A stretch of 64,000 nt of DNA from Spartobacteria bacterium. Its GTDB lineage: Bacteria > Verrucomicrobiota > Verrucomicrobiia > Chthoniobacterales > UBA10450. This document shows, piece after piece, positions 28,864-49,266 of the stretch (positions within the stretch are counted from its first letter, which is position 1; every line of letters begins with the position of its first letter). The notes below the pieces were generated by a model. The model did no database searches. It was not told the origin of the DNA and was given only the letters and a program-made list of their open reading frames with translations. Location of the stretch: NCBI GenBank assembly GCA_003134765.1, contig PLCM01000031.1, positions 129,540 through 193,539 on the forward strand. Direction: 5' to 3'. The position numbers and the translations under genes are program-made.

Positions 28864-29213
28864 TGGAAATTCCTCACGAAGCCACCCTGCTGCGGATCTT
28901 CATCGGAGAGAGCGACCGCTACGAGCACCGCCCGCTTTACGAAGCGATCATATTAAAAGCGCGCGAAATGCACCTCGCCGGCGCCACCGCCTTGCGGGGC
29001 CCGATCGGTTTCGGCAAATCGAGCCGGATGCACACGTCGAAAATTCTCCGGCTCTCGATGGACCTGCCGATGATCATCGAGATCGTGGACAGCGAGGAGA
29101 AGATCCAGGGCTTCCTCCCCGTCCTCGACGGCATGATCACCGGCGGGTTGGTGACGATGGAAAAAATCCGCGCCCTGCACTATCGCGGCGCGATCAGCGG
29201 TGGCGTTCCATGA
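28863..29213 (+). CDS. DUF190 (PII-like) protein, commonly linked to crcB
   Basis: MEIPHEATLLRIFIGESDRYEHRPLYEAIILKAREMHLAGATALRGPIGFG... The start overlaps the GNAT stop (TAATG). Confidence 0.8.
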   Translation: MEIPHEATLLRIFIGESDRYEHRPLYEAIILKAREMHLAGATALRGPIGFGKSSRMHTSKILRLSMDLPMIIEIVDSEEKIQGFLPVLDGMITGGLVTMEKIRALHYRGAISGGVP

Positions 29214-29961
29214 ATTCTTTCGCGAGAGCGCGATAGGCGCGCGCGCCGGTTCCGTTCGGATCGTGTTCGAGGATCGATTTGCCGAAACTGGGCGCTTCGC
29301 TCAGGCGGACGGTCCGCGGAATGACGGTTTCGTAAACGCGCTCGCCGAAATGGGCGCGGACATCAGCGACCACCTGCGCGCTGAGGTTGGTCCGGCTGTC
29401 GAACATCGTCATGACGATGCCGCCAATCTCAAGCCGGTCGTTCGCGCCGGACTCGCGGACCTGCTCGATGATGCGGACGATTTTCACCAGGCCTTCGAGC
29501 GCGAAATATTCGCATTGAATCGGCGTGAGGAGTTCGTCAGCGGCGGCGAGCGCATTCGTCATGAGAATGCCGAGCGAGGGCGGGCAATCCAGCAGGACAA
29601 AATCGAAGGTGTTGTCGGAACGGAGCGGAACGAGGGTTTCGGCCAGGCGGGTGAGGTGATTGTCGAGCCGCGCGATTTCCACTTCGGCCCCGGCGAGATC
29701 GAGGTCGGCGGGCACGAGGAAAACGCGCTCGACGCGGGTGGGCAGAATTTTGTCGACGATCGCAGCGGAGCCGAGGAGAGGATCGTACAAGCTCTCGCCC
29801 TCCAGTTCCTGCAAGCCGAACGAGCTGGTCGCGTTCCCCTGCGGATCGAGATCGATGATCAGGATGCGCAAGCCTTCCTCGGCCAACGCGCAGCCGAGAT
29901 TGACCGCGGTGGTCGTTTTCCCCACGCCGCCTTTCTGGTTCGCGATGGCGATAATCCTCAT
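29194..29961 (-). CDS. parA: ParA/Soj-family ATPase
   Basis: Deviant Walker A MRIIAIANQKGGVGKTTTAVNLG...IIDLDPQGNAT. No parB is adjacent. Confidence 0.92.
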   Translation of the reverse strand: MRIIAIANQKGGVGKTTTAVNLGCALAEEGLRILIIDLDPQGNATSSFGLQELEGESLYDPLLGSAAIVDKILPTRVERVFLVPADLDLAGAEVEIARLDNHLTRLAETLVPLRSDNTFDFVLLDCPPSLGILMTNALAAADELLTPIQCEYFALEGLVKIVRIIEQVRESGANDRLEIGGIVMTMFDSRTNLSAQVVADVRAHFGERVYETVIPRTVRLSEAPSFGKSILEHDPNGTGARAYRALAKEFMERHR

Positions 29962-29968
29962 GGGAAGA

Positions 29969-30095
29969 AAATTCGAAATCCGAAGCGCGAAACTCGAAAC
30001 AAATCCGAATTACGAATGGGGGAAAACGCAGTGTCTGCATTTCGGAATTTTTCCTCGGTCATTGTTTCGAGTCTCGTGCTTCGGATTTCGAAATT
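29969..30095. repeat. Long imperfect hairpin element (cgaaatccgaag arms) between the LanB-like gene and parA
   Basis: aaattcgaaatccgaagcgcgaaactcgaaaca (29969-30001) pairs with tgtttcgagtctcgtgcttcggatttcgaaatt (30063-30095). Confidence 0.7.
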
Positions 30096-32586
30096 ATCCA
30101 GGAACAATCTGGGTGCGAAGTTCGAAAGTCCTGCGCCCGTCCGCCTCCTGCCAAAGCAAATGATCCGGATTCGGAAGCATCTCGGTGACCTCGAGCTCAC
30201 CGGCTTTCGTCAGCCAGCCATGAAAGACTTCGAGGAACAAATAACTCTCGAGGTCGATGAAGACCGGTTTGGTATCCTTGTCGCGGCCTTCGGCGCCGCT
30301 GCGGCGAAGCGCCTGTTCACTGGGCCGAATGTAGACGTGGCGCGGCCAGCCCTTTGCCGCGCGCAGGCGTTCGATCGCCGCGACGAGGTTCCGGGCAACG
30401 CCGGTGTAATTTCCCGCCGGCAATTCCTCCAGTGTCACGGTCCACGAACGGCGTTGCACAATCACTTTGCCGCAACGTAACCGCGGCATGTGCGGCGTCC
30501 GCCCAAATAGAAACGGATGGAACCCAAGCGGAATCACCCAGGCGCGGGCGAAGGAGCCAAGGTATTCGTGCGACTCGCGCGTGCGCAAGCCGACGTCGCC
30601 GCTGGCCTCATCCGCAAACACCTCGATCTCGGCCGGCGGGATGAGCCGCCAGCGCGGATCGCCCCGTTGCGGCGCGACGAAACTCGTCAGGCCGGGCATG
30701 GCATCGAGCACTCTCACGGCCGTCGTCGCGGTGAAATCGATCGCGAAAAAGCCGAAGTGAAAAGTCGGCCGGCCTTTTGTCGTGCTCGCGAGCGCCCGGC
30801 CCAGTCCCTCCTTGTCGGGACACGCCCAGTAAAAGCCGTGATGCAACAACGCGACCGGCGGATGGAGTTCGGCCAGGACCCAGTCGTACTCACCCCGGCC
30901 GACGGCGTCCACGGACTTCGCAGAAATCTGCATGTCGGCCGAGGGATAAGTGTATTCGTCGAACTTCGGATACTGGAGATTTTTGCGAACGAAGTGGCAA
31001 TCATCGGCGGTGAGCTGCCATTCGTCGGCATCCGGCCGATGCGCGACCTGTTGGCGAAAGGCGGCTTTTACCTCCTGGAAGGCCATGTGCGCCAGCCCGA
31101 CCATTGCCGGTCCCGTAAGCGGCATTCGCAATTGCTCACAAACGTGCAGAAATGCGGGAAGGGGCAGAGCGCCATTTCGGGTCGGCGCCTTTTCGAGAAG
31201 TCCGCGCAAACCGGCGGAGACGCGGCTCGCCACGAAGGCGTAGCAATCGCGCCACAGATCGATCCACGGGGCGGCATCGCGCACGACTTCTCCGACGAGA
31301 TCTTCACCGATGGTGAAACCGCATTCGCGGAAACATTCTTCACCGATCGGATTGGCGGCGGAATACAAAAAACGTGTCCCGGTTTTCGGCAACGCGCCGA
31401 GCCGTTGCAAACGGTCGTCCGCCTCATCGATGATCCGGGTCCGCGCCGCCGTTTCGTCAGTCTCGGCAAACTTTCGCGGTAATTGCGCGAGGGGCTGAAG
31501 CCGCTCGAGCCACCGTGCGCGGACCGCGTTATCGCGCCACGCCGCGACATCGGCGACCAGGACATCGAAGGCGTGGGGCTCGAGCGCGGGAACCTCGACT
31601 TCCCAGCGGATGATCTTTTGCCGGGCCAGTTGCTCGAGAGGAGTCATTTCGACGCCTAACGAGTATGCGGGTGTTTTCGAATCAATCTGGCGAAGAAGGT
31701 CCCGGGTCGCGTCGTCAAGCGCGACCGTTTCACCAGTGTCGGCAAAGACGAAACGGTTTCCTTCGATCCGGCCATTTGGATTCAAGCGCGGCGCCAGTTC
31801 CGCGCGAACCTCCGGATCGCCATTCAACGCGGCGGCCAGGCCGTGCGCGGTCCAACGCTCGAGAAAAGTTTCGCGGGCCGCGATGCCGGGCCGCGGCGAG
31901 AGCGTCAAACTTGCCGGCGCTCCTCCAATTGTCCCCCACCCTTCCGGGCCAAACGCGCTCAGCGAATCGTTCTTCGCCGCGATGCGTTGCAAATAAAGAA
32001 GCAGATGCCGCTCATGAGCGCGCGACGATTTGTTGCGCGGCGGCAGGGCACCGGTGGCCGCGGATTGTTTCGCGAGGCGTTCGCGCAATCCTTCGGACGT
32101 GAAGACCAGATAGGGCGGCAAAACTGTCCGCGCCGCTTCGAGCAGATTGCTCCGCGCGGCCGCCAGTTCGCGCTGCAACGATTCCTCCAAGCGCGTTTCA
32201 GCCGCGGCCAGCTGCGACGCGCATTCCCAGCAATGGGCGAAAGCGCGCGAAGGAGCGTCGCCTGCCGGCGGCACCGCCCCGGAGCGAATCGCCTTCCGCC
32301 AGGCGCGAAATAAATCCTCGGAGAGCCCGTGGCCGCGGTGACGAAGAAGTTCTTCCACTTCCACCCTGGCTTGCGCGAACTCATCCTGCCTGACCACCAA
32401 TTCGCGGGCCAGTGCCGCCGTTTCGATCGTGACAAGTTTTTCGACGGCATCGAAGGGCACGCCGGCCATTCGGAGCAAAAATATGGGGGCAACGCGGTAC
32501 GACGAGTCAGACACTTGTCCAACAGAACGGAAGCCGTAGGCAGTGACAAGTGAAAGTCTACGCTCCGAAGGGACGTGCTTCCGCAC
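30094..32586 (-). CDS. Lantibiotic-dehydratase N-terminal (glutamylation) domain family protein; stand-alone LanB / PEARL-like
   Basis: 830-aa ORF with VAPIFLLRMAGVPFD, HLLLYLQRIAAKNDSLSAFGPEGWGTIG and the C-terminal KPVFIDLESYLFLEVF...ELEVTEMLP...GRRTFELR. The ORF-track start is a GTG inside a hairpin arm, so the true start may be the GTG at 32512-32514. The family call is from memory of motifs and no HMM was run. Confidence 0.6.
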   Translation of the reverse strand: MRKHVPSERRLSLVTAYGFRSVGQVSDSSYRVAPIFLLRMAGVPFDAVEKLVTIETAALARELVVRQDEFAQARVEVEELLRHRGHGLSEDLFRAWRKAIRSGAVPPAGDAPSRAFAHCWECASQLAAAETRLEESLQRELAAARSNLLEAARTVLPPYLVFTSEGLRERLAKQSAATGALPPRNKSSRAHERHLLLYLQRIAAKNDSLSAFGPEGWGTIGGAPASLTLSPRPGIAARETFLERWTAHGLAAALNGDPEVRAELAPRLNPNGRIEGNRFVFADTGETVALDDATRDLLRQIDSKTPAYSLGVEMTPLEQLARQKIIRWEVEVPALEPHAFDVLVADVAAWRDNAVRARWLERLQPLAQLPRKFAETDETAARTRIIDEADDRLQRLGALPKTGTRFLYSAANPIGEECFRECGFTIGEDLVGEVVRDAAPWIDLWRDCYAFVASRVSAGLRGLLEKAPTRNGALPLPAFLHVCEQLRMPLTGPAMVGLAHMAFQEVKAAFRQQVAHRPDADEWQLTADDCHFVRKNLQYPKFDEYTYPSADMQISAKSVDAVGRGEYDWVLAELHPPVALLHHGFYWACPDKEGLGRALASTTKGRPTFHFGFFAIDFTATTAVRVLDAMPGLTSFVAPQRGDPRWRLIPPAEIEVFADEASGDVGLRTRESHEYLGSFARAWVIPLGFHPFLFGRTPHMPRLRCGKVIVQRRSWTVTLEELPAGNYTGVARNLVAAIERLRAAKGWPRHVYIRPSEQALRRSGAEGRDKDTKPVFIDLESYLFLEVFHGWLTKAGELEVTEMLPNPDHLLWQEADGRRTFELRTQIVPG

Positions 32587-33815: not shown

Positions 33816-33934
33816 GGCGCGTAAGAGAAAGCTAAGGCTGTACCGCGTAACGAACGTATAGTGAGCTGCCCCTCGCCTCAAATGGCGTGTCTGTGAAGTG
33901 TGAAACTTTTTTTTGATGGCACAAGAAGCAACTT

Positions 33935-33963
33935 GTGAATAAGTCGGAAATTTGGTGAATAAG
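33935..33963. promoter_or_regulatory. Direct repeat GTGAATAAG-N11-GTGAATAAG in AT-rich divergent control region
   Basis: The exact 9-mer occurs at 33935-33943 and 33955-33963 (20-nt period). It lies between divergent genes starting at 33815 and 34059. A role as a regulator binding site is inference. Confidence 0.3.
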
Positions 33964-34058
33964 GTGGAGACAGAGAGCCACAAAAACATAATGACTGGAT
34001 TTAGCGTAATCACTAGAATGTCCGCCTCTTCCTCCAAATCCGAATCACAAATGGAGCC

Positions 34059-35297
34059 ATGTTAAAGCGGAATCGCGTCGTTGTTACCGGCATGGGCGTC
34101 ATCGCGCCGAATGGAATCGGACTAGAAGCCTTTTGGGATTCGATCGTGTCCGGACGGAGCGGCGTGGGTCCGATTACCCACTTCGACGCGAGCGCCTTCA
34201 AAAGCCGGATCGCCGGTGAAGTGAACGGATTTGAACCACTGGATTACATCGATCCAAAGTTCAAGCCGAAACGGATGGCGCGACACACGCAGTTCGCTTT
34301 CGCGGCCATGAAAATGGCGCTGGCGGATGCGGATTTCGACCCGTCCAAACATTCGGTCGATCATCCAATTCCTGTCATGCTGGGCGTGAGCACCACCGCG
34401 ATGGAAATTCTTGAAAGCGGCTGGGAGGATCTTTCGCGGCGCGGCCCCCGCGGCGTGAGTGCTGGAGTCGTCGATTGTCAGCCGCAGGCGGCCACGCAGG
34501 TGTTAACGATGGCGTTGGGAATCTCGGCCCGGGCCACCACAATTTCTTCAGCCTGTCCATCGGGTCTGGATGCGATCGCGGCGGCGGCCACCATGATCCG
34601 CCATGGAGAAGCGGATATCGCGGTGGCGGGCGGGACGGACGCGACGATCACGCCTTTGTCGATGGCGAGCTTCGCCACGGCGGGATTGAGTTCGACGCGG
34701 AATTCAGACCCGGAAAGGGCGAGCCGGCCATTCGACCTCCAGCGGGATTCCGGCGTCATTTCGGAGGGCGCGGGCATCGTAATCCTGGAGAATTATGAGA
34801 GCGCTATCGCCCGGGGCGTTTCGCCTTACCTCGAAATCACGGGCTACGGCACGCAGGGGGATGATTACGCCAGCGGTGAGCTGTTCGGATTGGGGCAAAC
34901 CATGCGGGCAGCGTTGAACAGCGCGGGCAAATCGCCCGAGGATGTCGATTACATTTGCGCCTACGGCCCGGGCCATCCCGCGCTCGACATTGTCGAGACG
35001 GATATGGTGAAGCGCGTTTTTGGGCGGCGCGCCTACAGCATTCCGATGAGCTCAATCAAGGGCGTGACCGGCAACGCCCTCTCCGCGGCGGGTCCGCACC
35101 AGGTGATCACGTGCGGTTTATGCTTTAAGCATGGGATCATCCCGCCTACCGCCAACTACGAAGTGCCCGATCCGCGTTGCGACCTCGACTACGTACCAGG
35201 CCGTTTTCGGAATCGACGGATCAACACCGCGCTGATCAATGTGCGCGGCCTGGGCGGAGGCAACAGCAGCCTGGTGGTGGAACGCGTTCGCGAATGA
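34059..35297 (+). CDS. FabF-like beta-ketoacyl synthase with non-canonical active site
   Basis: MLKRNRVVVTGMGVIAPNG, ISSACPSGLDAI (active-site Cys), DPERASRPFD, and C-terminal GLGGGNSSLVVE. The His positions are substituted (see findings). Confidence 0.88.
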   Translation: MLKRNRVVVTGMGVIAPNGIGLEAFWDSIVSGRSGVGPITHFDASAFKSRIAGEVNGFEPLDYIDPKFKPKRMARHTQFAFAAMKMALADADFDPSKHSVDHPIPVMLGVSTTAMEILESGWEDLSRRGPRGVSAGVVDCQPQAATQVLTMALGISARATTISSACPSGLDAIAAAATMIRHGEADIAVAGGTDATITPLSMASFATAGLSSTRNSDPERASRPFDLQRDSGVISEGAGIVILENYESAIARGVSPYLEITGYGTQGDDYASGELFGLGQTMRAALNSAGKSPEDVDYICAYGPGHPALDIVETDMVKRVFGRRAYSIPMSSIKGVTGNALSAAGPHQVITCGLCFKHGIIPPTANYEVPDPRCDLDYVPGRFRNRRINTALINVRGLGGGNSSLVVERVRE

Positions 35298-37807
35298 ACG
35301 CCGCCAATATTTCCCTCTGGCTGGCCCTGCTCATTCAGTTTGGGCTTGGACTGGCCGTCTACCGCGCCAATTCGCGCAACCACGCAAATCAAAGTTTTCT
35401 CATTGTCTCTTTTTTTATCTCGGCATGGCTCCTCTTCCTGCAATTCGCATTCGACGCCACGGATCCCGTAAAGGCCGCGCTCTGGATTCGCAGTGCTTGG
35501 GCCAGCGGGGTCCTGATGGTGAATGGATTCAACCTGCTCCGGCTCGGCATTCTCTGCCGGGACGGCGGGTGGAAGGAAATCGGGCGCAGGTGCGCCGGCC
35601 TCGCGATTCCGAGCCTGGTCGCCATCGCGGGCTGCTACACGCCTTTCTTCCTGCGATCGGCCGAGATCCGCCGGGCGAGCGGTCATGAACTAATTCCGCT
35701 GCCGGTTTACGGTCCACTCTTTCCCGTTTTCGGGGCCCTGCTCGCGAGTTCGGTCGTCATCCTGATCATCTTCTATGTGCGGGACCTCCGGCGCACCGCC
35801 GGAGTGCAGAAGGTCGAACTCCAGTTCATCGTCGCGGGCGGAGTCGCACTCGCCATTCTGGTCGCGCCCACCCAATTTGTGGATCGCGCGATCGCGATGC
35901 AGTTCGCGCCGTTCCGGATCGTTGTCTTCAGCCTGATCATTGCCTACGGCATCTCAACCCGGAAGATCATGGATGTCGGATTTTTCTTCCGGCGCATCAC
36001 ATCCTACGCCGTCCTCGCGGCCTACTTGCTGGTGCTTTACGCTCTGGTTTGGTGGCTGGTTTCGACGGCGTCCAGACCGCTTTTTGCAACCGAAAGCCGC
36101 ACTTTCGGGCACGTGGCGGCGGCCCTCGTCGTCGCCTTCGCGATGGCGCCGGCCCGTGGAATTTCTCAGCGCTTCGCCAACCGCCTTTTCATCGGCTCGC
36201 GCGGGATTGATTTCCAATCGACGATGAACCAGGCGGCCAGCATCCTGAAATCGGTCGCCACCCTGCAGGACTTGCTCGATCGCTTCGCGAAAACGATCGG
36301 GGAAGCAGTCGGGACGGATCGCGTTTTCATCCTGCTGCCCGAGAAGGACGCCTACGTGCAGCATTACCCCGCGGTCCATCCGGATTCCGACACGCCTGCC
36401 CTGCGGTTGAACCGGAGCGATCCCACAATTTCCTACCTCCAGACCCATCAGGAAGTGCTCGTCCTGGATGAGCTCCATCGTATTCGCAAAACGCCGGAGA
36501 TGGAGCGGGCCGCGAAAGAGATGGAGCGTCTGAAAACTGCCGTCGCTCTCGGCTTTTTCTCGCGGCAACATCTGGCGGGCGTCATGTTCCTGGGCCCGCG
36601 GCTCTCGGGCCGCATCTATGGCGCGGTCGAACAGAACGCCCTCCAGGTCCTCTGCGGCCAGTTGGCGGTGGCGATCGACAACGCCCAACTCTTCACCGAG
36701 GTCGAGAACGCGAGAATCTACAACGAAACCCTGCTGGAAAATCTGACGACCGGCGTGATCGCAGCCGGGGCCGACGAGCGGGTCACGGTATTTAATAGTG
36801 AGGCCGGGCAAATTACGGGGCTCAATCCGCGTGAAATCATCGAGCATTCGCTGGATCGCCTGCCCGCCGGGCTGCGCGCAATCCTGTGCGAGACGCTGCG
36901 CACCGGCAGCCGGCAGGAAAACAGCGAATTGGTTCTATCGCTCGGCGATCATAACGCGGTCGTTCGCGCCAGCAGCTCGATCTTTCACGGCCAACAAGGC
37001 GAGATGCTCGGCGCGCTCGTCGTGCTGACTGACATCACCGCGCTCAAACGCCTCGAATTACAGATCCGCCGGAGCGACCGGCTCGCCAGCCTCGGCACAC
37101 TCTCCGCCGGCATGGCGCACGAGATTAAAAATCCGCTGGTCTCGATCAAGACTTTTGCGCAGCTGTTGCCCGAGCGTTATCAGGACTCCGATTTCCGCGA
37201 AACCTTTTCGAACCTGATCGGGCACGAGATCGATCGGATCGATTCGCTGGTGAACCAGCTCCTCCGTTTTGCGCGGCCGGCCAAGCCAGTTCTGAGGCCA
37301 ATGCACGTGCACGAAGTCCTGGAAAAATCGCTCCAGCTCGTGGGCCACCGCCTCTACCAGAAGGAAATCAAATTAGCTCGTTCCTGGCAGGCCGATGTGG
37401 ATACTATCCGCGCCGATGCCGACCAGCTCGAACAGGTTTTCCTCAACTTCTTCCTCAACGCCATGGACGCCATGAAGCACGGCGGAGAACTGAGCGTGGC
37501 GACGGAGATCCACGCGGGAACGGAATGGGTGGCGGCCATCTCTGGGACCAATGGCGATTCTCACGAAGTCCTGCGGGTGACGATTCGCGACGACGGCGAA
37601 GGCATTCGCAAGGAAGATATCCCCCACGTCTTCGATCCGTTCTTTACCACGAAAGACTACGGCACGGGACTCGGGCTTTCGGTTGTGCACGGCATCATCC
37701 AGGAACATGGCGGACAGATCGAAGTGGAAAGCGAGATCAGGAAAGGAACATCATTTCACATTCTTCTGCCGCTGGTTCGTTTCGCGGAGGGGGTTGTCGC
37801 GGCATGA
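35294..37807 (+). CDS. Sensor histidine kinase, multi-TM N-terminal domain + GAF + PAS + HisKA + HATPase
   Basis: About 8-9 TM helices at the N-terminus. The H-box is SAGMAHEIKNPL and the ATP-lid is DDGEGI...GTGLGLSVV. ATG 35294 overlaps the KS stop (ATGA). Confidence 0.88.
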   Translation: MNAANISLWLALLIQFGLGLAVYRANSRNHANQSFLIVSFFISAWLLFLQFAFDATDPVKAALWIRSAWASGVLMVNGFNLLRLGILCRDGGWKEIGRRCAGLAIPSLVAIAGCYTPFFLRSAEIRRASGHELIPLPVYGPLFPVFGALLASSVVILIIFYVRDLRRTAGVQKVELQFIVAGGVALAILVAPTQFVDRAIAMQFAPFRIVVFSLIIAYGISTRKIMDVGFFFRRITSYAVLAAYLLVLYALVWWLVSTASRPLFATESRTFGHVAAALVVAFAMAPARGISQRFANRLFIGSRGIDFQSTMNQAASILKSVATLQDLLDRFAKTIGEAVGTDRVFILLPEKDAYVQHYPAVHPDSDTPALRLNRSDPTISYLQTHQEVLVLDELHRIRKTPEMERAAKEMERLKTAVALGFFSRQHLAGVMFLGPRLSGRIYGAVEQNALQVLCGQLAVAIDNAQLFTEVENARIYNETLLENLTTGVIAAGADERVTVFNSEAGQITGLNPREIIEHSLDRLPAGLRAILCETLRTGSRQENSELVLSLGDHNAVVRASSSIFHGQQGEMLGALVVLTDITALKRLELQIRRSDRLASLGTLSAGMAHEIKNPLVSIKTFAQLLPERYQDSDFRETFSNLIGHEIDRIDSLVNQLLRFARPAKPVLRPMHVHEVLEKSLQLVGHRLYQKEIKLARSWQADVDTIRADADQLEQVFLNFFLNAMDAMKHGGELSVATEIHAGTEWVAAISGTNGDSHEVLRVTIRDDGEGIRKEDIPHVFDPFFTTKDYGTGLGLSVVHGIIQEHGGQIEVESEIRKGTSFHILLPLVRFAEGVVAA

Positions 37808-39804
37808 TTCCATCGCCCCCCATTTGCATCCTCTACTCGCAGGATGCCGATCTCGTCCGCCGCGTGAAGGCATTCCTGAGCGCGCTCGCGCAAGTGCGCC
37901 ATGTCAGCTCGCCGGACCGTCTCGACGCCGTGCTGCAACAGAATAGTCCCGCCATTCTCGTCCTGGATTTACGGGCCAAGGAAGCACGCGATCTTCTCGA
38001 ACAAATCCAGACCGCGCTGCCTGAGATCCTCGTCATTGCGCTGGGGACGTTGCGCTCGGAGCCGTTGCGCGAAGTCGAGCATTCTGGCATTTACGCTGCG
38101 GAAGATTTGCAGATCGATCGACGTCGTTTGCAGGGGCTGGTCTCGCGCGGGTTCGATCATTTGCGCGTCCTGCAGGAAAATCGCGATTTACGCGATCATG
38201 CGTTGGTGCCGTTCGCCGCTGAGCCGCTGCGGCGCGTCGAGGCGCCGCCCGAACGACGCGAGGCGTCGATGCCGCTTCTGCGTTTCCCACGCGTGTTCCG
38301 TCGGTTCGATAACGTCGAGGCACTCCTCGCCAGCGTCGTGGAAAATGTAGCTGACGCGACCGGTGTGGGCCGGGTGGGAATCTTTTCCAAAATCAGGCAG
38401 AGCGATCGCTACCGTTTGCGCGCCGGCCTGCGTTGTCTGCCCGAGACCTATGACATTGAATATGGCGAGCGCGATGCCCTCGTGCGCTGGTTTGAGCTGC
38501 ATGCGCACCTGATTTGCCGGGCAAATCTTCCGCAGGTCGATCCGGCACAGCGCGCGATCATGCGGCGCGCGCTCGATACCTTTGCGGCTGAAGTAATCGT
38601 CCCCCTCCACGCCGCCGGCCGAATTATCGGATGGGTCTTTTTTGGCCATCGAGTGACCGGTCAACGCTTCGAGTCGTCCGATCTCGAAGCGCTGATGGTT
38701 CTCGCGGAACACGTTTCAACGGTCCTGGAGAATGCGTTGCTCAATGAAGAAGTGAGAGTGCAAAAAACACTCGCGGAGACGTTGCTCAAATCTATTCCGC
38801 CGGGGATCGTCGCGACCGACCAAGAGGCGAACATCCGCTGGTTCAATCCGACGGCCGAACAAATTCTCGGCGTTGACGCCCAGGATGCCCTCAATCACCC
38901 CATCGAGGCGGTCGGCGGCCGGCTCGCGGCTTTTTTGCGCGAAACCCTGGATGCGCACGAAAATCTGCCGGCCCGCCAATGGATCGATCCCAACACCCGG
39001 CGATCGCTTTCGGTGGAAACGCGGCGTTTGGTCGACGAGAAAACTCCGCTCGGGGCCGTGGCCGTCGTCCACGATCTGACGACGGAGGACAACCTCCGGC
39101 AGAAGCAGGACCTGGTGGATCGTGCTGCCTTCTGGACGGATCTCGCCGCCAGCATGTCACACGAAATCCGCAACCCACTCGTGGCGATCAAAACATTCGC
39201 CCAGCTTCTCCCGGAGCGATTCGAAGACCCGGATTTTCGCAAGGATTTCAACGAGATCGTCGTCCAGGAAATCGACCGACTCGACAAGATCATCACTCAA
39301 ATCAACAACTTCGCGCATCCCTCCGAGCTGGTGATGAAGCCGGTCGACCTTCGAGGCCCCCTCAAGAAAGCGATCGAGTTGGCCAAAGGACGCGTGACAA
39401 AGAACGGCGTCGCCATCGACACGACTTTGCCCAACGACCTGCCGCGCGTCCTCGGCGACGAAGATGCCCTCACCGAAGCGTTCGCCCATATTGTGGCCAA
39501 TGCTGCCGAAGCGACCTCGGGCCAATCCAAACCGCGCATCACCCTGGCTGCCAAATCAATCCACGAAGGGGGCCGAACCAGCGGAGTGGTGATCACCGTT
39601 CAGGACAACGGCCGCGGGATTTCCGCGGACCTCCGCGAGAAAATCTTCTCGCCGTTTTGCACCACGAAAGCGCGCGGAATGGGCCTCGGGTTGCCAATCG
39701 TGAAACGCACCGTGTTCGACCATAACGGGCGCGTCGACATCGACTCGAATCCCCACGGGACCTCTGTGAGCATTATGCTCCCGGCGACCACGATCGCGAA
39801 ATAG
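37804..39804 (+). CDS. Cytoplasmic histidine kinase, receiver-like N-terminus + GAF + PAS + HisKA + HATPase
   Basis: The N-terminal ICILYSQDADL...AILVLDLRAKEARDLL looks receiver-like. The H-box is ASMSHEIRNPL, followed by DNGRGI...GMGLGLPIV. ATG 37804 overlaps the previous stop (ATGA). Confidence 0.85.
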   Translation: MIPSPPICILYSQDADLVRRVKAFLSALAQVRHVSSPDRLDAVLQQNSPAILVLDLRAKEARDLLEQIQTALPEILVIALGTLRSEPLREVEHSGIYAAEDLQIDRRRLQGLVSRGFDHLRVLQENRDLRDHALVPFAAEPLRRVEAPPERREASMPLLRFPRVFRRFDNVEALLASVVENVADATGVGRVGIFSKIRQSDRYRLRAGLRCLPETYDIEYGERDALVRWFELHAHLICRANLPQVDPAQRAIMRRALDTFAAEVIVPLHAAGRIIGWVFFGHRVTGQRFESSDLEALMVLAEHVSTVLENALLNEEVRVQKTLAETLLKSIPPGIVATDQEANIRWFNPTAEQILGVDAQDALNHPIEAVGGRLAAFLRETLDAHENLPARQWIDPNTRRSLSVETRRLVDEKTPLGAVAVVHDLTTEDNLRQKQDLVDRAAFWTDLAASMSHEIRNPLVAIKTFAQLLPERFEDPDFRKDFNEIVVQEIDRLDKIITQINNFAHPSELVMKPVDLRGPLKKAIELAKGRVTKNGVAIDTTLPNDLPRVLGDEDALTEAFAHIVANAAEATSGQSKPRITLAAKSIHEGGRTSGVVITVQDNGRGISADLREKIFSPFCTTKARGMGLGLPIVKRTVFDHNGRVDIDSNPHGTSVSIMLPATTIAK

Positions 39805-39882
39805 GCATTTTCGATTTCCGATTTTGGATTTATGGTTGCGTCCCCCGTCGGGCGCAATTCAACCATCAATCTCCAAAATCGA

Positions 39883-40836
39883 ATGATCGTCACCACTGCT
39901 CAACTTTATAAACACGCCTACGGCAAATACGCCGTCGGGGCCTACAACATTAATAACATGGAGCAGCTCCTCGGGCTCTTCAGCGGCAACGTCCGGAGCA
40001 AAGCGCCGTTCATTATCCAGCTTTCCAAGGGCGCCCGGAAATATGCCGACAAGCGGATGCTCGAAGCCATGATCCGTACCGCCGAAGAGATGTTTCCCGA
40101 GGCCGTATTCGCGGTCCACCTCGACCATGGCGACGAGGAGACCTGCTATGATTGCATTGCCTCGGGGTTCTACAGCTCGGTGATGATCGATGCGAGCCAC
40201 GAGGCGTTCGACGAGAACGTTGCCATCACGAAGCGCGTGGTGGAAAAGGCGCATCCCAAAGGCATCAGCGTCGAAGCGGAGCTGGGTCAACTGGGAGGCG
40301 TGGAGGAGGACATCAAGGTCGATGAAGGACATGCTTCGCTCACGAATCCGCTCGAGGCCGTGGAATTCGTGAAGCAGACCGGGTGCGATTCACTGGCGGC
40401 CGCGATCGGCACCAGCCATGGCGCCTACAAGTTCAAGGGCCAGCAAAGCCTTCATTTCGACGTGATCGAGGACATCCAGAAATTGATCCCCGGCATGCCG
40501 ATCGTGATGCACGGCAGCTCGAGCGTCCCGATCGAAGAAGTGCAGCGGATCAATGCGGCCGGCGGAAAGCTCGATCCTTCAGCGCGGGGCGTGAACGAAG
40601 AAGAATATTTGCCTGCGGCCAAACTGGGCGTCACCAAGGTAAACATCGATACTGATGGGCGCCTGGTCTGGACGAGGGTCCATCGCGAATACTTCCGGGA
40701 CCACCCCGCCGAATTCGATTTCCGCCCGCCGGGAAAAATCTTCGTCGAGGAATACGCCAAATTTATCGCCCACAAGAATGGCAAGCTTGGCTCGGCTGGC
40801 CAGCTCGACGGCGTTCGGGAGAGTCTGAAGGGATAG
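39883..40836 (+). CDS. fba: Class II fructose-bisphosphate aldolase
   Basis: YAVGAYNINNMEQ...HLDHG...AIGTSHGAYKF...MHGSSSVP. Confidence 0.93.
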   Translation: MIVTTAQLYKHAYGKYAVGAYNINNMEQLLGLFSGNVRSKAPFIIQLSKGARKYADKRMLEAMIRTAEEMFPEAVFAVHLDHGDEETCYDCIASGFYSSVMIDASHEAFDENVAITKRVVEKAHPKGISVEAELGQLGGVEEDIKVDEGHASLTNPLEAVEFVKQTGCDSLAAAIGTSHGAYKFKGQQSLHFDVIEDIQKLIPGMPIVMHGSSSVPIEEVQRINAAGGKLDPSARGVNEEEYLPAAKLGVTKVNIDTDGRLVWTRVHREYFRDHPAEFDFRPPGKIFVEEYAKFIAHKNGKLGSAGQLDGVRESLKG

Positions 40837-41561: not shown

Positions 41562-41966
41562 TTATTTCGGGGATGCTTCCTCGAGAAGCCAGCGCAACGC
41601 TTCCGCCGAAATACATTCCGCGCCACACGCGCTCGCGGTTTCCTGTTCCAGAACATCGCTCGTCGCAACGAGCAGCTTGAATCGGCCTCCATACTTGCTC
41701 GCGAGGCGTTCGATGATTGAATCGGCCGTTTGTCCGGCGCGCGAATAAAAAACCTGGATTTCTCCGGGATCGGAACTGACGCTAACCGACTGTCCCTTTC
41801 CGTCGAAAACTACCGCGACGCGCGTTCCGGTCCAATCCTGGTAATCCCGAAGCTTTTTGGCCAGGGCCTCCCGCGCGAGCGAGGTCCGACGGGCATGGAG
41901 CTTGCGCAATTCCGGCCAGGCGAAGATGACGCTGTGTCCGTCAACAATAAGGTACTCCGCGCGCAC
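41562..41966 (-). CDS. NYN-domain (YacP/Rae1-like) putative RNase
   Basis: EYLIVDGHSVIFAWPEL...VAVVFDGKG...VFYSRAGQTADSIIERL...LLVATSDVLEQ. The start is GTG. Confidence 0.75.
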   Translation of the reverse strand: MRAEYLIVDGHSVIFAWPELRKLHARRTSLAREALAKKLRDYQDWTGTRVAVVFDGKGQSVSVSSDPGEIQVFYSRAGQTADSIIERLASKYGGRFKLLVATSDVLEQETASACGAECISAEALRWLLEEASPK

Positions 41967-47134: not shown

Positions 47135-47299
47135 ACGCCTGACATCCTATTCGGGCCTTGCTTTCATTGCACGGCCGTCGTTCGGCCGGTTGCGCTTCCC
47201 GGAATCAGCCCGATCGAGCAAGTTTCCGTTCCAATATCGCGACGTTCTTTGACAAGCGGGCGGTTGGTCTGCAAAGCTCGCTCTCCCGAACTTGTCGAC

Positions 47300-47986
47300 A
47301 TGTCGAGCCCGCGAATTCTAATCATCGAGGACGAACAGGACGTGATCGATCTGCTTACGCTTCATCTGCGCAAAGCCGGCTTCGCCTTGAGCACCGCGAC
47401 GGATGGAGCCGTGGGACTCCGCAAGGCGAGGGAAGAATCGCCGGCGTTGATCATTCTCGATCTGCTCCTGCCGAAAATGCCCGGGCTAGAGATCTGCAAG
47501 GTGCTCAAGACCGACATCGCCACCCGGCAGATTCCCATTCTCATGTTGACCGCGAAGGCGGAGGAAATCGACCGCATTATCGGGTTGGAATTCGGCGCCG
47601 ACGATTACGTCACGAAGCCATTCAGCCCTCGCGAACTGGTTCTCCGCGTGAACGCCATTCTCCGGCGGGGAAAAGGCGAAGCGGGCGATGAGAAAAAATT
47701 GTCAATTGGACAGATCACCCTCGATCCCTCCCGCCATCATGTGACCGTGGGGGACAAATCGGTGCGATTGACCAGCGTAGAATTCAAATTGCTCAGCATG
47801 CTCATGCGGCGCCAGGGACGGGTGCAGGAGCGCGACCGTTTGCTGAACGAAGTCTGGGGATACGAAAGCGTCATCGACACGCGCACCGTCGATACTCACA
47901 TCCGACGGCTCCGCAAGAAATTGGGCAAGGCATCCTCCGCCATCGAAACAGTCCGCGGCTTCGGGTACCGCATTCGGGAAAGCTAA
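47300..47986 (+). CDS. phoB: OmpR/PhoB-family response regulator
   Basis: RILIIEDEQDV...LIILDLLLPKMPG...KPF and a winged-helix C-terminus ...VRGFGYRI. It is adjacent to phoR and pst. Confidence 0.9.
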   Translation: MSSPRILIIEDEQDVIDLLTLHLRKAGFALSTATDGAVGLRKAREESPALIILDLLLPKMPGLEICKVLKTDIATRQIPILMLTAKAEEIDRIIGLEFGADDYVTKPFSPRELVLRVNAILRRGKGEAGDEKKLSIGQITLDPSRHHVTVGDKSVRLTSVEFKLLSMLMRRQGRVQERDRLLNEVWGYESVIDTRTVDTHIRRLRKKLGKASSAIETVRGFGYRIRES

Positions 47987-47991
47987 GCCGG

Positions 47992-49266
47992 ATGGGTTGG
48001 CTCGCCTTTTCCCTGTTGCTGGGGCTCCTGCTCGCGATCGGTTTCGCGGTGTGGCACAAATGGATCGCGCCGTGGAAAGATGTGGAGCAATTGGCTGACG
48101 ACATCGTAGGAAGTCGTCCTCCGCGGAAATTTCTCATCAGCGGCAACCTGCATGCGCGCCGGATCGGACTGGCGCTCGAAAGCCTGACCGATCGCCGGCG
48201 CGAGCTCGAGCAACGGGTGCGCGAGGGGGAGCTCAGCGTCCAGGCTGTCTTCGGCGCGATGCTCGATGGACTGGTGGTGGTGGACGATCTCCGCCGCGTC
48301 CGTCTCATGAATCGCGAATTCCGGACCGTTTTCGGTATCGAACAAAGTATCTCCGGCGGAACCCTCCTGGAGCTGATTCGGCACGCTTCGGTCGATCGCC
48401 TGGTCATGGAAGCGATCCGCAGCAGGCAACCAAAGCGGGAATCGATTCAACTTTCCCGCGGCACCAGCGACGGCCGGGAAATGGAAGTAAGCGCCGTCCC
48501 TTTGGGAGAGAATTCCGCCCAAATGGAAGGCGCCGTCGTGTTGTTTCGCGACGTTACGCAACTGCGGCAGGTGGAGGAAATGCGCCGGGAATTTGTCGCC
48601 AACGTTTCGCATGAGCTGCGAACGCCGCTCTCGATCTTCCGCGGATATCTCGAGACGTTGCTCGACGACCCACACCAGCCGCCGGGCGAACTGCTGCGCA
48701 TCCTTGAAATTATGGAGCGCCATTCCGATCGGTTGAATGCGCTGGTCGAAGATGTGCTCAGCCTGGCCCGGCTCGAGTCGCCGGGGATGGAACTTAATCT
48801 GGCGGAGGTCGATCTTCCCGAGCTGCTCCACTCGATCATGCGAGATTGGGAGAAACGCTTTGCCACCAAGCAGCTCAAATCGCATCTCAATTTCCCGGGA
48901 AATCTTCCGCTCCTCGAGGCGGACGAGAGCCGTCTTCAAGAAGTCATTTACAACCTTCTCGATAATGCCGTGAAATATTCCAAACCCGGCGGGACCGTCT
49001 CTCTTCGTGCTGAAATCGAGGGCGAGCGCGTTCGTATTAGCGTGACCGATCAGGGCGTCGGGATTCCCGAGTCCGATCTGCCCCGTATCTTCGAGCGCTT
49101 CTATCGCGCCGATAAGGCGCGCAGTCGCGAACTCGGCGGGACGGGCCTGGGCCTGTCGATCGTCAAGCACATCATCCAACTCCATGGCGGCGCCGTGGAG
49201 GCGAGGAGCGAACTCGATAAGGGAACGACGATCAGCGTGCTGGTGCCAATCACGCGCAGAGCGTGA
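47992..49266 (+). CDS. phoR: Phosphate-regulon sensor histidine kinase
   Basis: TM helix, PAS domain, H-box FVANVSHELRTPL, then DQGVGI...GTGLGLSIVKHI. Confidence 0.88.
   Translation: MGWLAFSLLLGLLLAIGFAVWHKWIAPWKDVEQLADDIVGSRPPRKFLISGNLHARRIGLALESLTDRRRELEQRVREGELSVQAVFGAMLDGLVVVDDLRRVRLMNREFRTVFGIEQSISGGTLLELIRHASVDRLVMEAIRSRQPKRESIQLSRGTSDGREMEVSAVPLGENSAQMEGAVVLFRDVTQLRQVEEMRREFVANVSHELRTPLSIFRGYLETLLDDPHQPPGELLRILEIMERHSDRLNALVEDVLSLARLESPGMELNLAEVDLPELLHSIMRDWEKRFATKQLKSHLNFPGNLPLLEADESRLQEVIYNLLDNAVKYSKPGGTVSLRAEIEGERVRISVTDQGVGIPESDLPRIFERFYRADKARSRELGGTGLGLSIVKHIIQLHGGAVEARSELDKGTTISVLVPITRRA

Follow-up and report, generated by a model that had tools for sequence, protein, structure and literature searches.

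A FabF-fold ketosynthase-like protein with an altered catalytic site is encoded with sensor histidine kinases in Chthoniobacterales

The KS0 domains of trans-acyltransferase polyketide synthases (trans-AT PKSs) keep the active-site Cys of ketosynthases. Of the two catalytic His residues they have lost the first, the second being normally present, and they are embedded in PKS modules beside acyl carrier proteins (ACPs). Chain length factors (CLFs, or KS-beta) have the Cys replaced by Gln and pair with an adjacent KS-alpha. Among the enzymes that make bacterial autoinducers, CqsA and LqsA are dependent on pyridoxal phosphate. The protein studied here, termed KS, is a FabF-fold ketosynthase-like protein encoded immediately ahead of two histidine kinase genes in a 64-kb stretch of DNA (the window) from the Spartobacteria bacterium assembly GCA_003134765.1 (contig PLCM01000031.1, positions 129,540 to 193,539; order Chthoniobacterales), and the locus can be compared with both ketosynthases and signalling operons. 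For FabF, the roles of individual residues in ACP docking and in a two-loop gate have been described (bioRxiv 10.1101/644518). In Ralstonia, the phc operon encodes a synthase, a sensor histidine kinase, a soluble protein with receiver and histidine kinase domains and a lone receiver, and a DNA-binding domain is absent (PMC8578825). The cqsA and lqsA synthase genes cluster with sensor kinase genes, LuxO acting together with RpoN (PMC3376566). In the literature no description was found of a ketosynthase-kinase module, or of a KAS II clade with a Cys-(His/Tyr/Trp)-Asn active site; prior work in subscription journals is possible.

The KS open reading frame (ORF) starts with an ATG that has the sequence GGAG a few bases 5′ of it, and its product carries both ketoacyl-synthase domains in Pfam (ketoacyl-synt N, PF00109, 1e-45; ketoacyl-synt C, PF02801, 2e-23) together with a Thiolase_N match. 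The HMMER alignment with Bacillus subtilis FabF (4ls5) gave an E value of 6e-91. AlphaFold2, run on an alignment of 63 sequences, gave a model with a pLDDT of 95.7 and a pTM of 0.95 which, compared at fold level only, superposed on B. subtilis FabF (4ls7) with a TM score of 0.95 at 40% identity. The Pfam domains and the model place KS in the two-domain KAS I/II thiolase fold, and the top PDB matches were canonical FabFs throughout (32–41% identity), with no solved structure of any member of the KS clade described below among them. Residues were mapped by HMMER alignments to solved FabFs and by a MAFFT alignment with an Escherichia coli FabF sequence that matched chain 6okg_A from end to end (911 bits). 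The placements of Cys166, Tyr302, Lys334 and Asn339, with His306 four residues beyond Tyr302, were the same as those given by eye in an earlier note on this DNA (Table 1). KS is confirmed as a full FabF-fold protein with an altered catalytic site, as that note had described it: the Cys is kept and both canonical His positions are replaced, the Cys-His-His triad giving way to Cys166, Tyr302 and Asn339.

Against the FabF equivalog model of NCBIfam (TIGR03150) KS scored 366.5 bits, below the cut-off of 493.75, in agreement with the earlier view that this is not a housekeeping FabF, and it also fell below the cut-off of every curated NCBIfam KS family. When ten relatives of the 'AHGPSD' type were scored in the same way, only the cut-off of the broad PRK07314 subfamily was reached, by 2 of the 10. 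In public databases the protein is annotated as 3-oxoacyl-ACP synthase II, all named members of the clade carrying such generic annotations.

Orthologues of KS at 55–98% identity were present in 80 species-representative metagenome-assembled genomes, every one of which bears the label Chthoniobacterales, Spartobacteria or Verrucomicrobia. At positions 166/302/306/334/339, the 86 orthologues taken from genome loci read CYHKN in 70, CYDKN in 8, CHHKN in 4, and CWHKN and CYSKN in 2 each. Pairwise ratios of nonsynonymous to synonymous substitution rates (dN/dS) for KS against eight orthologues lay between 0.03 and 0.07, which indicates that KS is under strong purifying selection and is a functional gene, not a decayed orphan. 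Because the altered residue pattern recurs among the 86 orthologues, and because of the low dN/dS ratios, it is on this sequence evidence neither an error nor a product of chance. When 1.84 billion cluster representatives were searched, the sequences closest to KS (40–54% identity) were almost all of the Cys/His/Asn type, with the motifs AHGP(G/S)(H/D) and KGxxGNPL, and canonical Cys-His-His FabFs appeared only at ~43% identity to KS and below.

The features of the clade were scored in 33 clade members against 22 canonical FabFs, using E. coli FabF numbering. His340 is replaced by Asn, and Phe229 by Gly, in 33/33 members; Thr307 is replaced by His in 29/33, or by Asp, and Thr305 by Pro. Gating loop 2 carries a 4-residue deletion in all 33, which removes the aromatic residue 267, His268 and Thr270 of the D-A-Y-H-x-T-A-P motif. 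Phe400 of the GFGG motif (residues 399–402) is Leu, Val or Ile in the clade (GLGG), Phe398 is Arg or His, and Arg206 is Gly in the clade sequences displayed. The FabF gate, that is, GFGG with Phe400 and loop 2 with His268 and Thr270, is consequently lacking in KS and in the 33 family sequences. The residues kept in the clade are Cys163, Lys335, Asp311 (KS Asp310), Glu314 (KS Glu313) and Asn396, along with the Lys65/Arg68/Lys69 basic patch.

In a neighbour-joining tree with E. coli FabF as the root, the branching order of which is approximate, the clade defined by the loop-2 deletion and the Asn was recovered as monophyletic. Groups of the Asp306, Trp and His types diverge earliest; the Tyr clade, which is that of the Chthoniobacterales, is nested within the His-type sequences. 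His at position 302 returns within the Tyr clade (P0111, P0120 and P0311), and Trp at this position has at least two separate origins. The ancestral triad of the clade was probably a FabH/chalcone synthase (CHS)-like Cys-His-Asn, and Tyr302 would then be a lineage-specific change on an already non-canonical site. Position 302 is His, Tyr or Trp in the clade. At position 396 the Tyr clade has Arg, also in its His revertants, and 18/18 non-Tyr sequences of alignment A4 have His. Because His, Tyr and Trp swap at position 302, with His reappearing within the Tyr clade, the role of this residue could presumably be filled by any of the three side chains, for example as a hydrogen-bond donor or by stacking, and is unlikely to be that of an indispensable general base. 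Asn339, His306 and Arg/His396 appear to be under selection in their own right, and since these replacement residues are highly conserved the active site looks re-engineered, rather than decayed or inactivated. Verrucomicrobiota, Chthoniobacterales and Kiritimatiellae are the only groups to which named clade members belong so far, and by its residues and branching the KS clade is a large, uncharacterised group distinct from canonical FabF.

Replacement of the first His in a KAS II fold is not unique to this clade, because five proteins outside it show the same. These are FabF-like cluster representatives unrelated to the clade, with Tyr (P0243, P0261 and P0269) or Phe (P0183 and P0218) at the first His; at the second position these proteins keep the His or have Gln. 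P0243 and P0261 also carry N-terminal extensions of ~150–190 amino acids.

The KS gene had been described in the earlier note as an orphan, and this was not borne out. The ATG of the kinase gene HK1 overlaps the KS stop codon in an ATGA, the ATG of a second kinase gene, HK2, overlaps the HK1 stop codon in another, and KS is predicted from this arrangement to be the first gene of a translationally coupled KS-HK1-HK2 operon. A third gene, encoding the hybrid RR-HK, starts 243 bp upstream of KS and runs in the opposite direction. The H-box His is intact in all three kinases (residue 609 in HK1; residue 453, in the HisKA domain, in HK2), and the HK1 orthologues are recognised as HisKA_7TM. The first ~120 amino acids of HK2 resemble a degenerate receiver by eye (ICILYSQDADL...ILVLDLR...ILVIALG) and are without a Pfam match; if that resemblance holds, HK2 would be a second receiver-kinase hybrid. 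A lone receiver-domain protein, which is kept after a class II aldolase gene in most Chthoniobacterales loci, is a possible phosphorelay partner, its membership of the module being uncertain.

This arrangement was examined across 80 genome and 80 metagenome loci. RR-HK lies divergently next to the KS-HK1-HK2 core in all loci that are sufficiently long, and KS stands directly before a HisKA_7TM-type kinase in all of the ~170 loci with enough downstream sequence, down to 41% identity, with a single variation (L091, protein P0127) in which an opposite-strand O-methyltransferase gene lies between KS and HK1. A second kinase usually follows HK1, with the RR-HK hybrid divergently upstream; in loci L006 and L088 the HK2 orthologue has no HATPase match. 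Eight distant members (P0121, P0129, P0271, P0315, P0140, P0127, P0123 and P0143; 41–55% identity), which are of the His, Trp and Asp306 types, all show the KS-HK1-HK2 linkage, KS and HK1 directly adjoining in 7/8, and because they keep it the linkage does not reflect mere shared ancestry in one order. The full-length identities between the window and locus L004 are similar for KS (54%), RR-HK (51%), HK1 (47%) and HK2 (49%), from which it follows that the four genes stayed together and diverged at similar rates. The core layout, a co-operonic synthase-like gene and membrane sensor kinase gene, is thus conserved across taxa. A clade with conserved kinase neighbours, which the earlier note had proposed to look for, was found with much stronger linkage than expected, and for this reason a role in acyl-signal handling is plausible. 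No fusion of a KS-type protein to kinase or receiver domains was present in the 150 best 50%-cluster representatives; the longer proteins in this set all have a His at the second position, and 28/31 are Cys-His-His.

Accessory genes were read from eight loci (L004, L006, L088, L089, L090, L091, L094 and L100). In these distant modules HK2 is followed by a gene for a sigma54-dependent response regulator. They also encode an outer-membrane channel of the FadL/Toluene_X type, a flavoprotein of ~530 residues that belongs to the p-cresol methylhydroxylase/vanillyl-alcohol oxidase (VAO/PCMH) family (1wve, E 2e-53; 4-alkylphenol-oxidase-like) and sometimes an O-methyltransferase, for which the nearest NCBIfam families are BchU/CrtF (TIGR02716) and FlxJ. 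The kinases and the regulator of the distant modules gave their best scores against AtoS and AtoC, below the cut-off. The accessory genes point to the making or transporting of a hydrophobic small molecule, and their combination is reminiscent of phenolic-lipid operons.

When set beside the known ketosynthases, KS shares with FabF/KAS II the two-domain thiolase fold, the Cys nucleophile motif, the equivalents of Lys335, Asp311, Glu314 and Asn396, and the basic patch. It differs in the pocket and loop changes of the clade, in scoring below the TIGR03150 cut-off and in having kinase genes instead of fab genes around it; an identification as housekeeping FabF was rejected on the triad, the gating loops, the family score and the context. 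The Cys-His-Asn triad of FabH/CHS is found in close relatives of KS (P0111, P0120, P0121, P0315 and others), the triad positions of FabF and FabH being regarded as structurally equivalent. KS itself is Cys-Tyr-Asn, however, and its scaffold is that of KAS I/II, with PF00109 and PF02801 and best-matching structures that are all KAS II, and not a KAS III or type III PKS fold. The earlier argument that a protein without both His residues would be condensation-dead is not established, given that Asn339 is clade-universal and represents the FabH/CHS solution, that relatives are Cys-His-Asn and that position 302 has switched among His, Tyr and Trp.

The likeness to KS0 domains drawn in the same note holds in part: KS keeps the Cys and lacks the first His, as they do, but the second His, which they normally keep, is also gone, and KS is a free-standing protein of 412 residues with no ACP or PKS genes nearby. 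Searches with tblastn using E. coli ACP and FabF found no ACP and no second KS in the 64-kb window, and among real-looking, un-nested ORFs of at least 200 amino acids at 21.7–51 kb Pfam found no fatty-acid or polyketide genes; the earlier statement that genes for an ACP, acyltransferase, reductase or dehydratase are missing from the neighbourhood holds as far as these searches reach. From CLFs KS differs in that Cys166 is invariant in its family and no partner is encoded in the window. Both the CLF and the KS0 assignment were rejected, the Cys being kept and a PKS context or partner KS being absent.

With regard to signalling operons, the locus shares its layout with phcBSRQ, in which an enzyme that takes a fatty-acyl intermediate as its substrate is encoded with a sensor kinase, a receiver-kinase and a lone receiver. 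PhcB is a methyltransferase and not a KS, however, and the likeness to PhcS and PhcR is one of layout. The CqsA-CqsS and LqsA-LqsS systems likewise have a synthase gene beside that of a membrane sensor kinase and a sigma54-dependent output, the latter matched in the distant KS modules only; they differ in enzyme family and sensor domain, and the window is without a sigma54 regulator. KS, being of the KAS I/II fold, belongs to none of the known autoinducer-synthase families (PhcB methyltransferase, CqsA/LqsA, LuxI or RpfF). By analogy, the module layout resembles signal-synthase/sensor-kinase modules, with an enzyme family that is not known in that role.

On this evidence KS most probably works on a lipid-like signal, which it would make or otherwise handle, and not on the fatty acids of membranes. 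The explanation that we tentatively prefer is that of a lipid-signal synthase and sensor module, in which the KS clade would serve a two-component network of several kinases as its dedicated handler of a small molecule. Cys166 would be acylated by a fatty-acyl thioester, either acyl-ACP or acyl-CoA, and the rebuilt pocket (Asn339, Lys334, His306, a hydrogen-bond-donating aromatic residue at 302, Arg/His396, the shortened loop 2 and the Leu gate) would turn the acyl group into a hydrophobic product, by FabH/CHS-like decarboxylative condensation or by acyl transfer. If by condensation, Asn339 and the residue-302 side chain may act as an oxyanion hole. The product would be perceived by the membrane domain or the GAF/PAS domains of HK1, and the signal could be relayed from HK1 to HK2, on to the receiver-kinase hybrid and then to the lone receiver, the relay ending at a sigma54 activator in other lineages. 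A small hydrophobic product is favoured because of the channel, flavoprotein and methyltransferase genes in relatives and the parallels in layout with phcBSRQ, with cqsA-cqsS/lqsA-lqsS and with LuxO-RpoN. Several points weigh against this explanation. Of the residues by which FabF contacts ACP, Arg206 and Thr270 are gone, although the Lys65/Arg68/Lys69 patch is kept, and Tyr or Trp at the first His position is not known to be catalytically competent for decarboxylation. The Chthoniobacterales version lacks FadL, the VAO-type flavoprotein, the O-methyltransferase and the sigma54 regulator within the 64-kb window, so that the accessory evidence for biosynthesis comes from relatives only. Furthermore, it is not obvious how a product would be freed from a lone KS that comes with no ACP, thioesterase or release enzyme of its own. 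A bolder version, about which we are doubtful, is that a FabF-fold protein has been turned into a kinase regulatory subunit or a dedicated ligand factory, with Cys166 acylated from the acyl-ACP pool of the cell and signalling directly to the 7TM kinase. If this were true, a phosphorelay would be reading the status of fatty-acid synthesis, or a lipid autoinducer of a new class made by a ketosynthase, throughout Verrucomicrobiota and Kiritimatiellae, groups to which some of the commonest bacteria in soil belong.

The main rival to a synthase is an acyl-sensing pseudoenzyme, which we regard as possible but on balance unlikely. Without turnover, KS would bind, or be acylated at Cys166 by, acyl-ACP or acyl-CoA, dock to HK1 or HK2 and tune the balance of kinase and phosphatase activities, so that the phosphorelay would respond to the status of lipid synthesis or to a fatty acid taken up from outside. 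The ATGA overlaps suggest production of KS and kinase in roughly one-to-one amounts, as would suit such a subunit, and the conserved Cys and basic ACP-contact patch are consistent with it, as are the loss of both canonical His residues in the Chthoniobacterales lineage and the dismantling of the gating machinery of an elongating KS. The core that is kept everywhere also consists of KS and kinases only, with no release or tailoring genes in the window. In pseudoenzymes, however, the nucleophile is usually lost or the pocket drifts, and here Asn339, His306, Lys334 and Arg/His396 are near-invariant; a pseudoenzyme explains these conserved replacement residues less well. The tailoring-type enzymes and outer-membrane channel of the distant modules argue in the same direction, as does the lack of any KS-kinase fusion among the 150 representatives mentioned above.

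It is also conceivable, but improbable, that KS belongs to the metabolism of a membrane or storage lipid, as a specialised condensing enzyme or acyltransferase that is co-expressed with the neighbouring two-component genes and under their control, and so an output of these genes instead of the source of their input. Two-component genes are often found beside their targets, conserved promoter-like elements and a direct repeat stand upstream of KS (see below), and the Cys-His-Asn relatives could be competent condensing enzymes. Such a regulated metabolic enzyme is harder to reconcile with KS being the first gene of the operon and overlapping a kinase gene, with a KS-kinase linkage that holds to 41% identity while all other neighbours change, and with a conserved core that holds no other lipid-pathway gene. 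Very little weight is given to KS as an ordinary housekeeping FabF paralogue, an inactive relic or a CLF-like partner of another KS. The public annotation as 3-oxoacyl-ACP synthase II and the best PDB and NCBIfam matches, which are FabF, speak for the first of these, but they stand against the TIGR03150 score, the missing Cys-His-His triad, the altered GFGG motif and loop 2, and a neighbourhood with no fab genes or partner KS. A relic is excluded by the dN/dS values, and CLFs lack the Cys that is invariant here.

To our knowledge, the Chthoniobacterales rank with the most abundant bacteria of soil and with the least cultured ones, and their signalling is almost unexplored. The KS family is large and strongly conserved, is now mis-annotated as 'FabF' and is genetically locked to sensor kinases. 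If KS is a signal synthase, it would represent a class of enzymes new to lipid signalling in bacteria, and with its kinase a synthase-receptor pair in the Planctomycetes-Verrucomicrobia-Chlamydiae (PVC) bacteria; if it is an acyl-sensing pseudoenzyme, a new route for lipid metabolism into two-component signalling would be implied. Either way, the Cys-His-His triad of KAS I/II is shown to be replaceable by Cys-(His/Tyr/Trp)-Asn under strong purifying selection, and this matters for ketosynthase annotation and for KS engineering.

The intergenic region between the divergent RR-HK and KS genes contains a promoter-like sequence, ATGACT-17-TAGAAT, that is conserved over orthologous loci (~77–95% protein identity), and a direct repeat of GTGAATAAG, spaced 20 bp from start to start and conserved over the same orthologous intergenic regions. 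The GTGAATAAG repeat and the ATGACT-17-TAGAAT sequence are, respectively, a possible regulator-binding site and a candidate promoter of the KS-HK1-HK2 operon. No sigma54 −24/−12 promoter was found upstream of KS in the window, and 11 related loci gave one weak match.

Table 1. Positions in the 64-kb window of the KS gene, its mapped residues and the features around it.
Feature	Position	Strand	Description
KS, 412 aa	34059-35297	+	FabF-fold ketosynthase-like; Pfam, HMMER, MAFFT, AlphaFold2
Cys166	34554-34556	+	E. coli FabF Cys163; codon TGT
Tyr302	34962-34964	+	E. coli FabF His303; codon TAC
His306	34974-34976	+	E. coli FabF Thr307
Lys334	35058-35060	+	E. coli FabF Lys335
Asn339	35073-35075	+	E. 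coli FabF His340; codon AAC
Arg396	35244-35246	+	E. coli FabF Phe398 position
Leu398	35250-35252	+	Replaces Phe400 gate of E. coli FabF
KS/HK1 overlap	35294-35297		ATGA
HK1, 837 aa	35294-37807	+	Histidine kinase; ~7 N-terminal hydrophobic segments, GAF, PAS, HisKA, HATPase
HK1/HK2 overlap	37804-37807		ATGA
HK2, 666 aa	37804-39804	+	Soluble histidine kinase; receiver-like N terminus (by eye), GAF, PAS, HisKA, HATPase
HK2 N-terminal part	37804-38160	+	Degenerate-receiver-like by eye
RR-HK, 382 aa	32667-33815	-	Receiver-HisKA-HATPase hybrid; divergent from KS
RR-HK/KS intergenic region	33816-34058		Divergent
Direct repeat	33935-33943 and 33955-33963		Possible regulator-binding site
Promoter-like sequence	33991-34019	+	Candidate promoter
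830-aa protein	30094-32586	-	Weak partial Lant_dehydr_N match, 62 bits, best residues 695-760
ParA/MinD-type ATPase	29194-29961	-	Next after 830-aa protein
Class II fructose-bisphosphate aldolase	39832-40836	+	Starts 28 bp past HK2
Lone receiver-domain protein, 148 aa	41097-41543	+	After the aldolase
NYN/YacP-like nuclease	41562-41966	-	After lone receiver
GDSL-type lipase/acylhydrolase, 587 aa	21781-23544	-	Outside the conserved neighbourhood
Response regulator and histidine kinase pair	47249-49266	+	Apparently classical

Downstream of RR-HK, and on the same strand, the genes for the 830-aa LanB-N-like protein and the ParA/MinD-type ATPase accompany the module in essentially every Chthoniobacterales locus; the distant modules lack both genes and have the FadL-type channel and the flavoprotein instead. 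The 830-aa protein has no PDB or NCBIfam match, and a link to peptide aminoacyl-tRNA ligase-like enzymes is a guess. After the kinases, the trio of aldolase, lone receiver and nuclease genes is kept in many Chthoniobacterales loci, the aldolase gene occupying the place where the distant modules have the sigma54 regulator. Within ~12 kb of KS, no further lipid-related gene is present apart from that for the GDSL-type lipase/acylhydrolase. The apparently classical response regulator and histidine kinase pair, identified by tblastn similarity only, lies ~8 kb downstream of the module.

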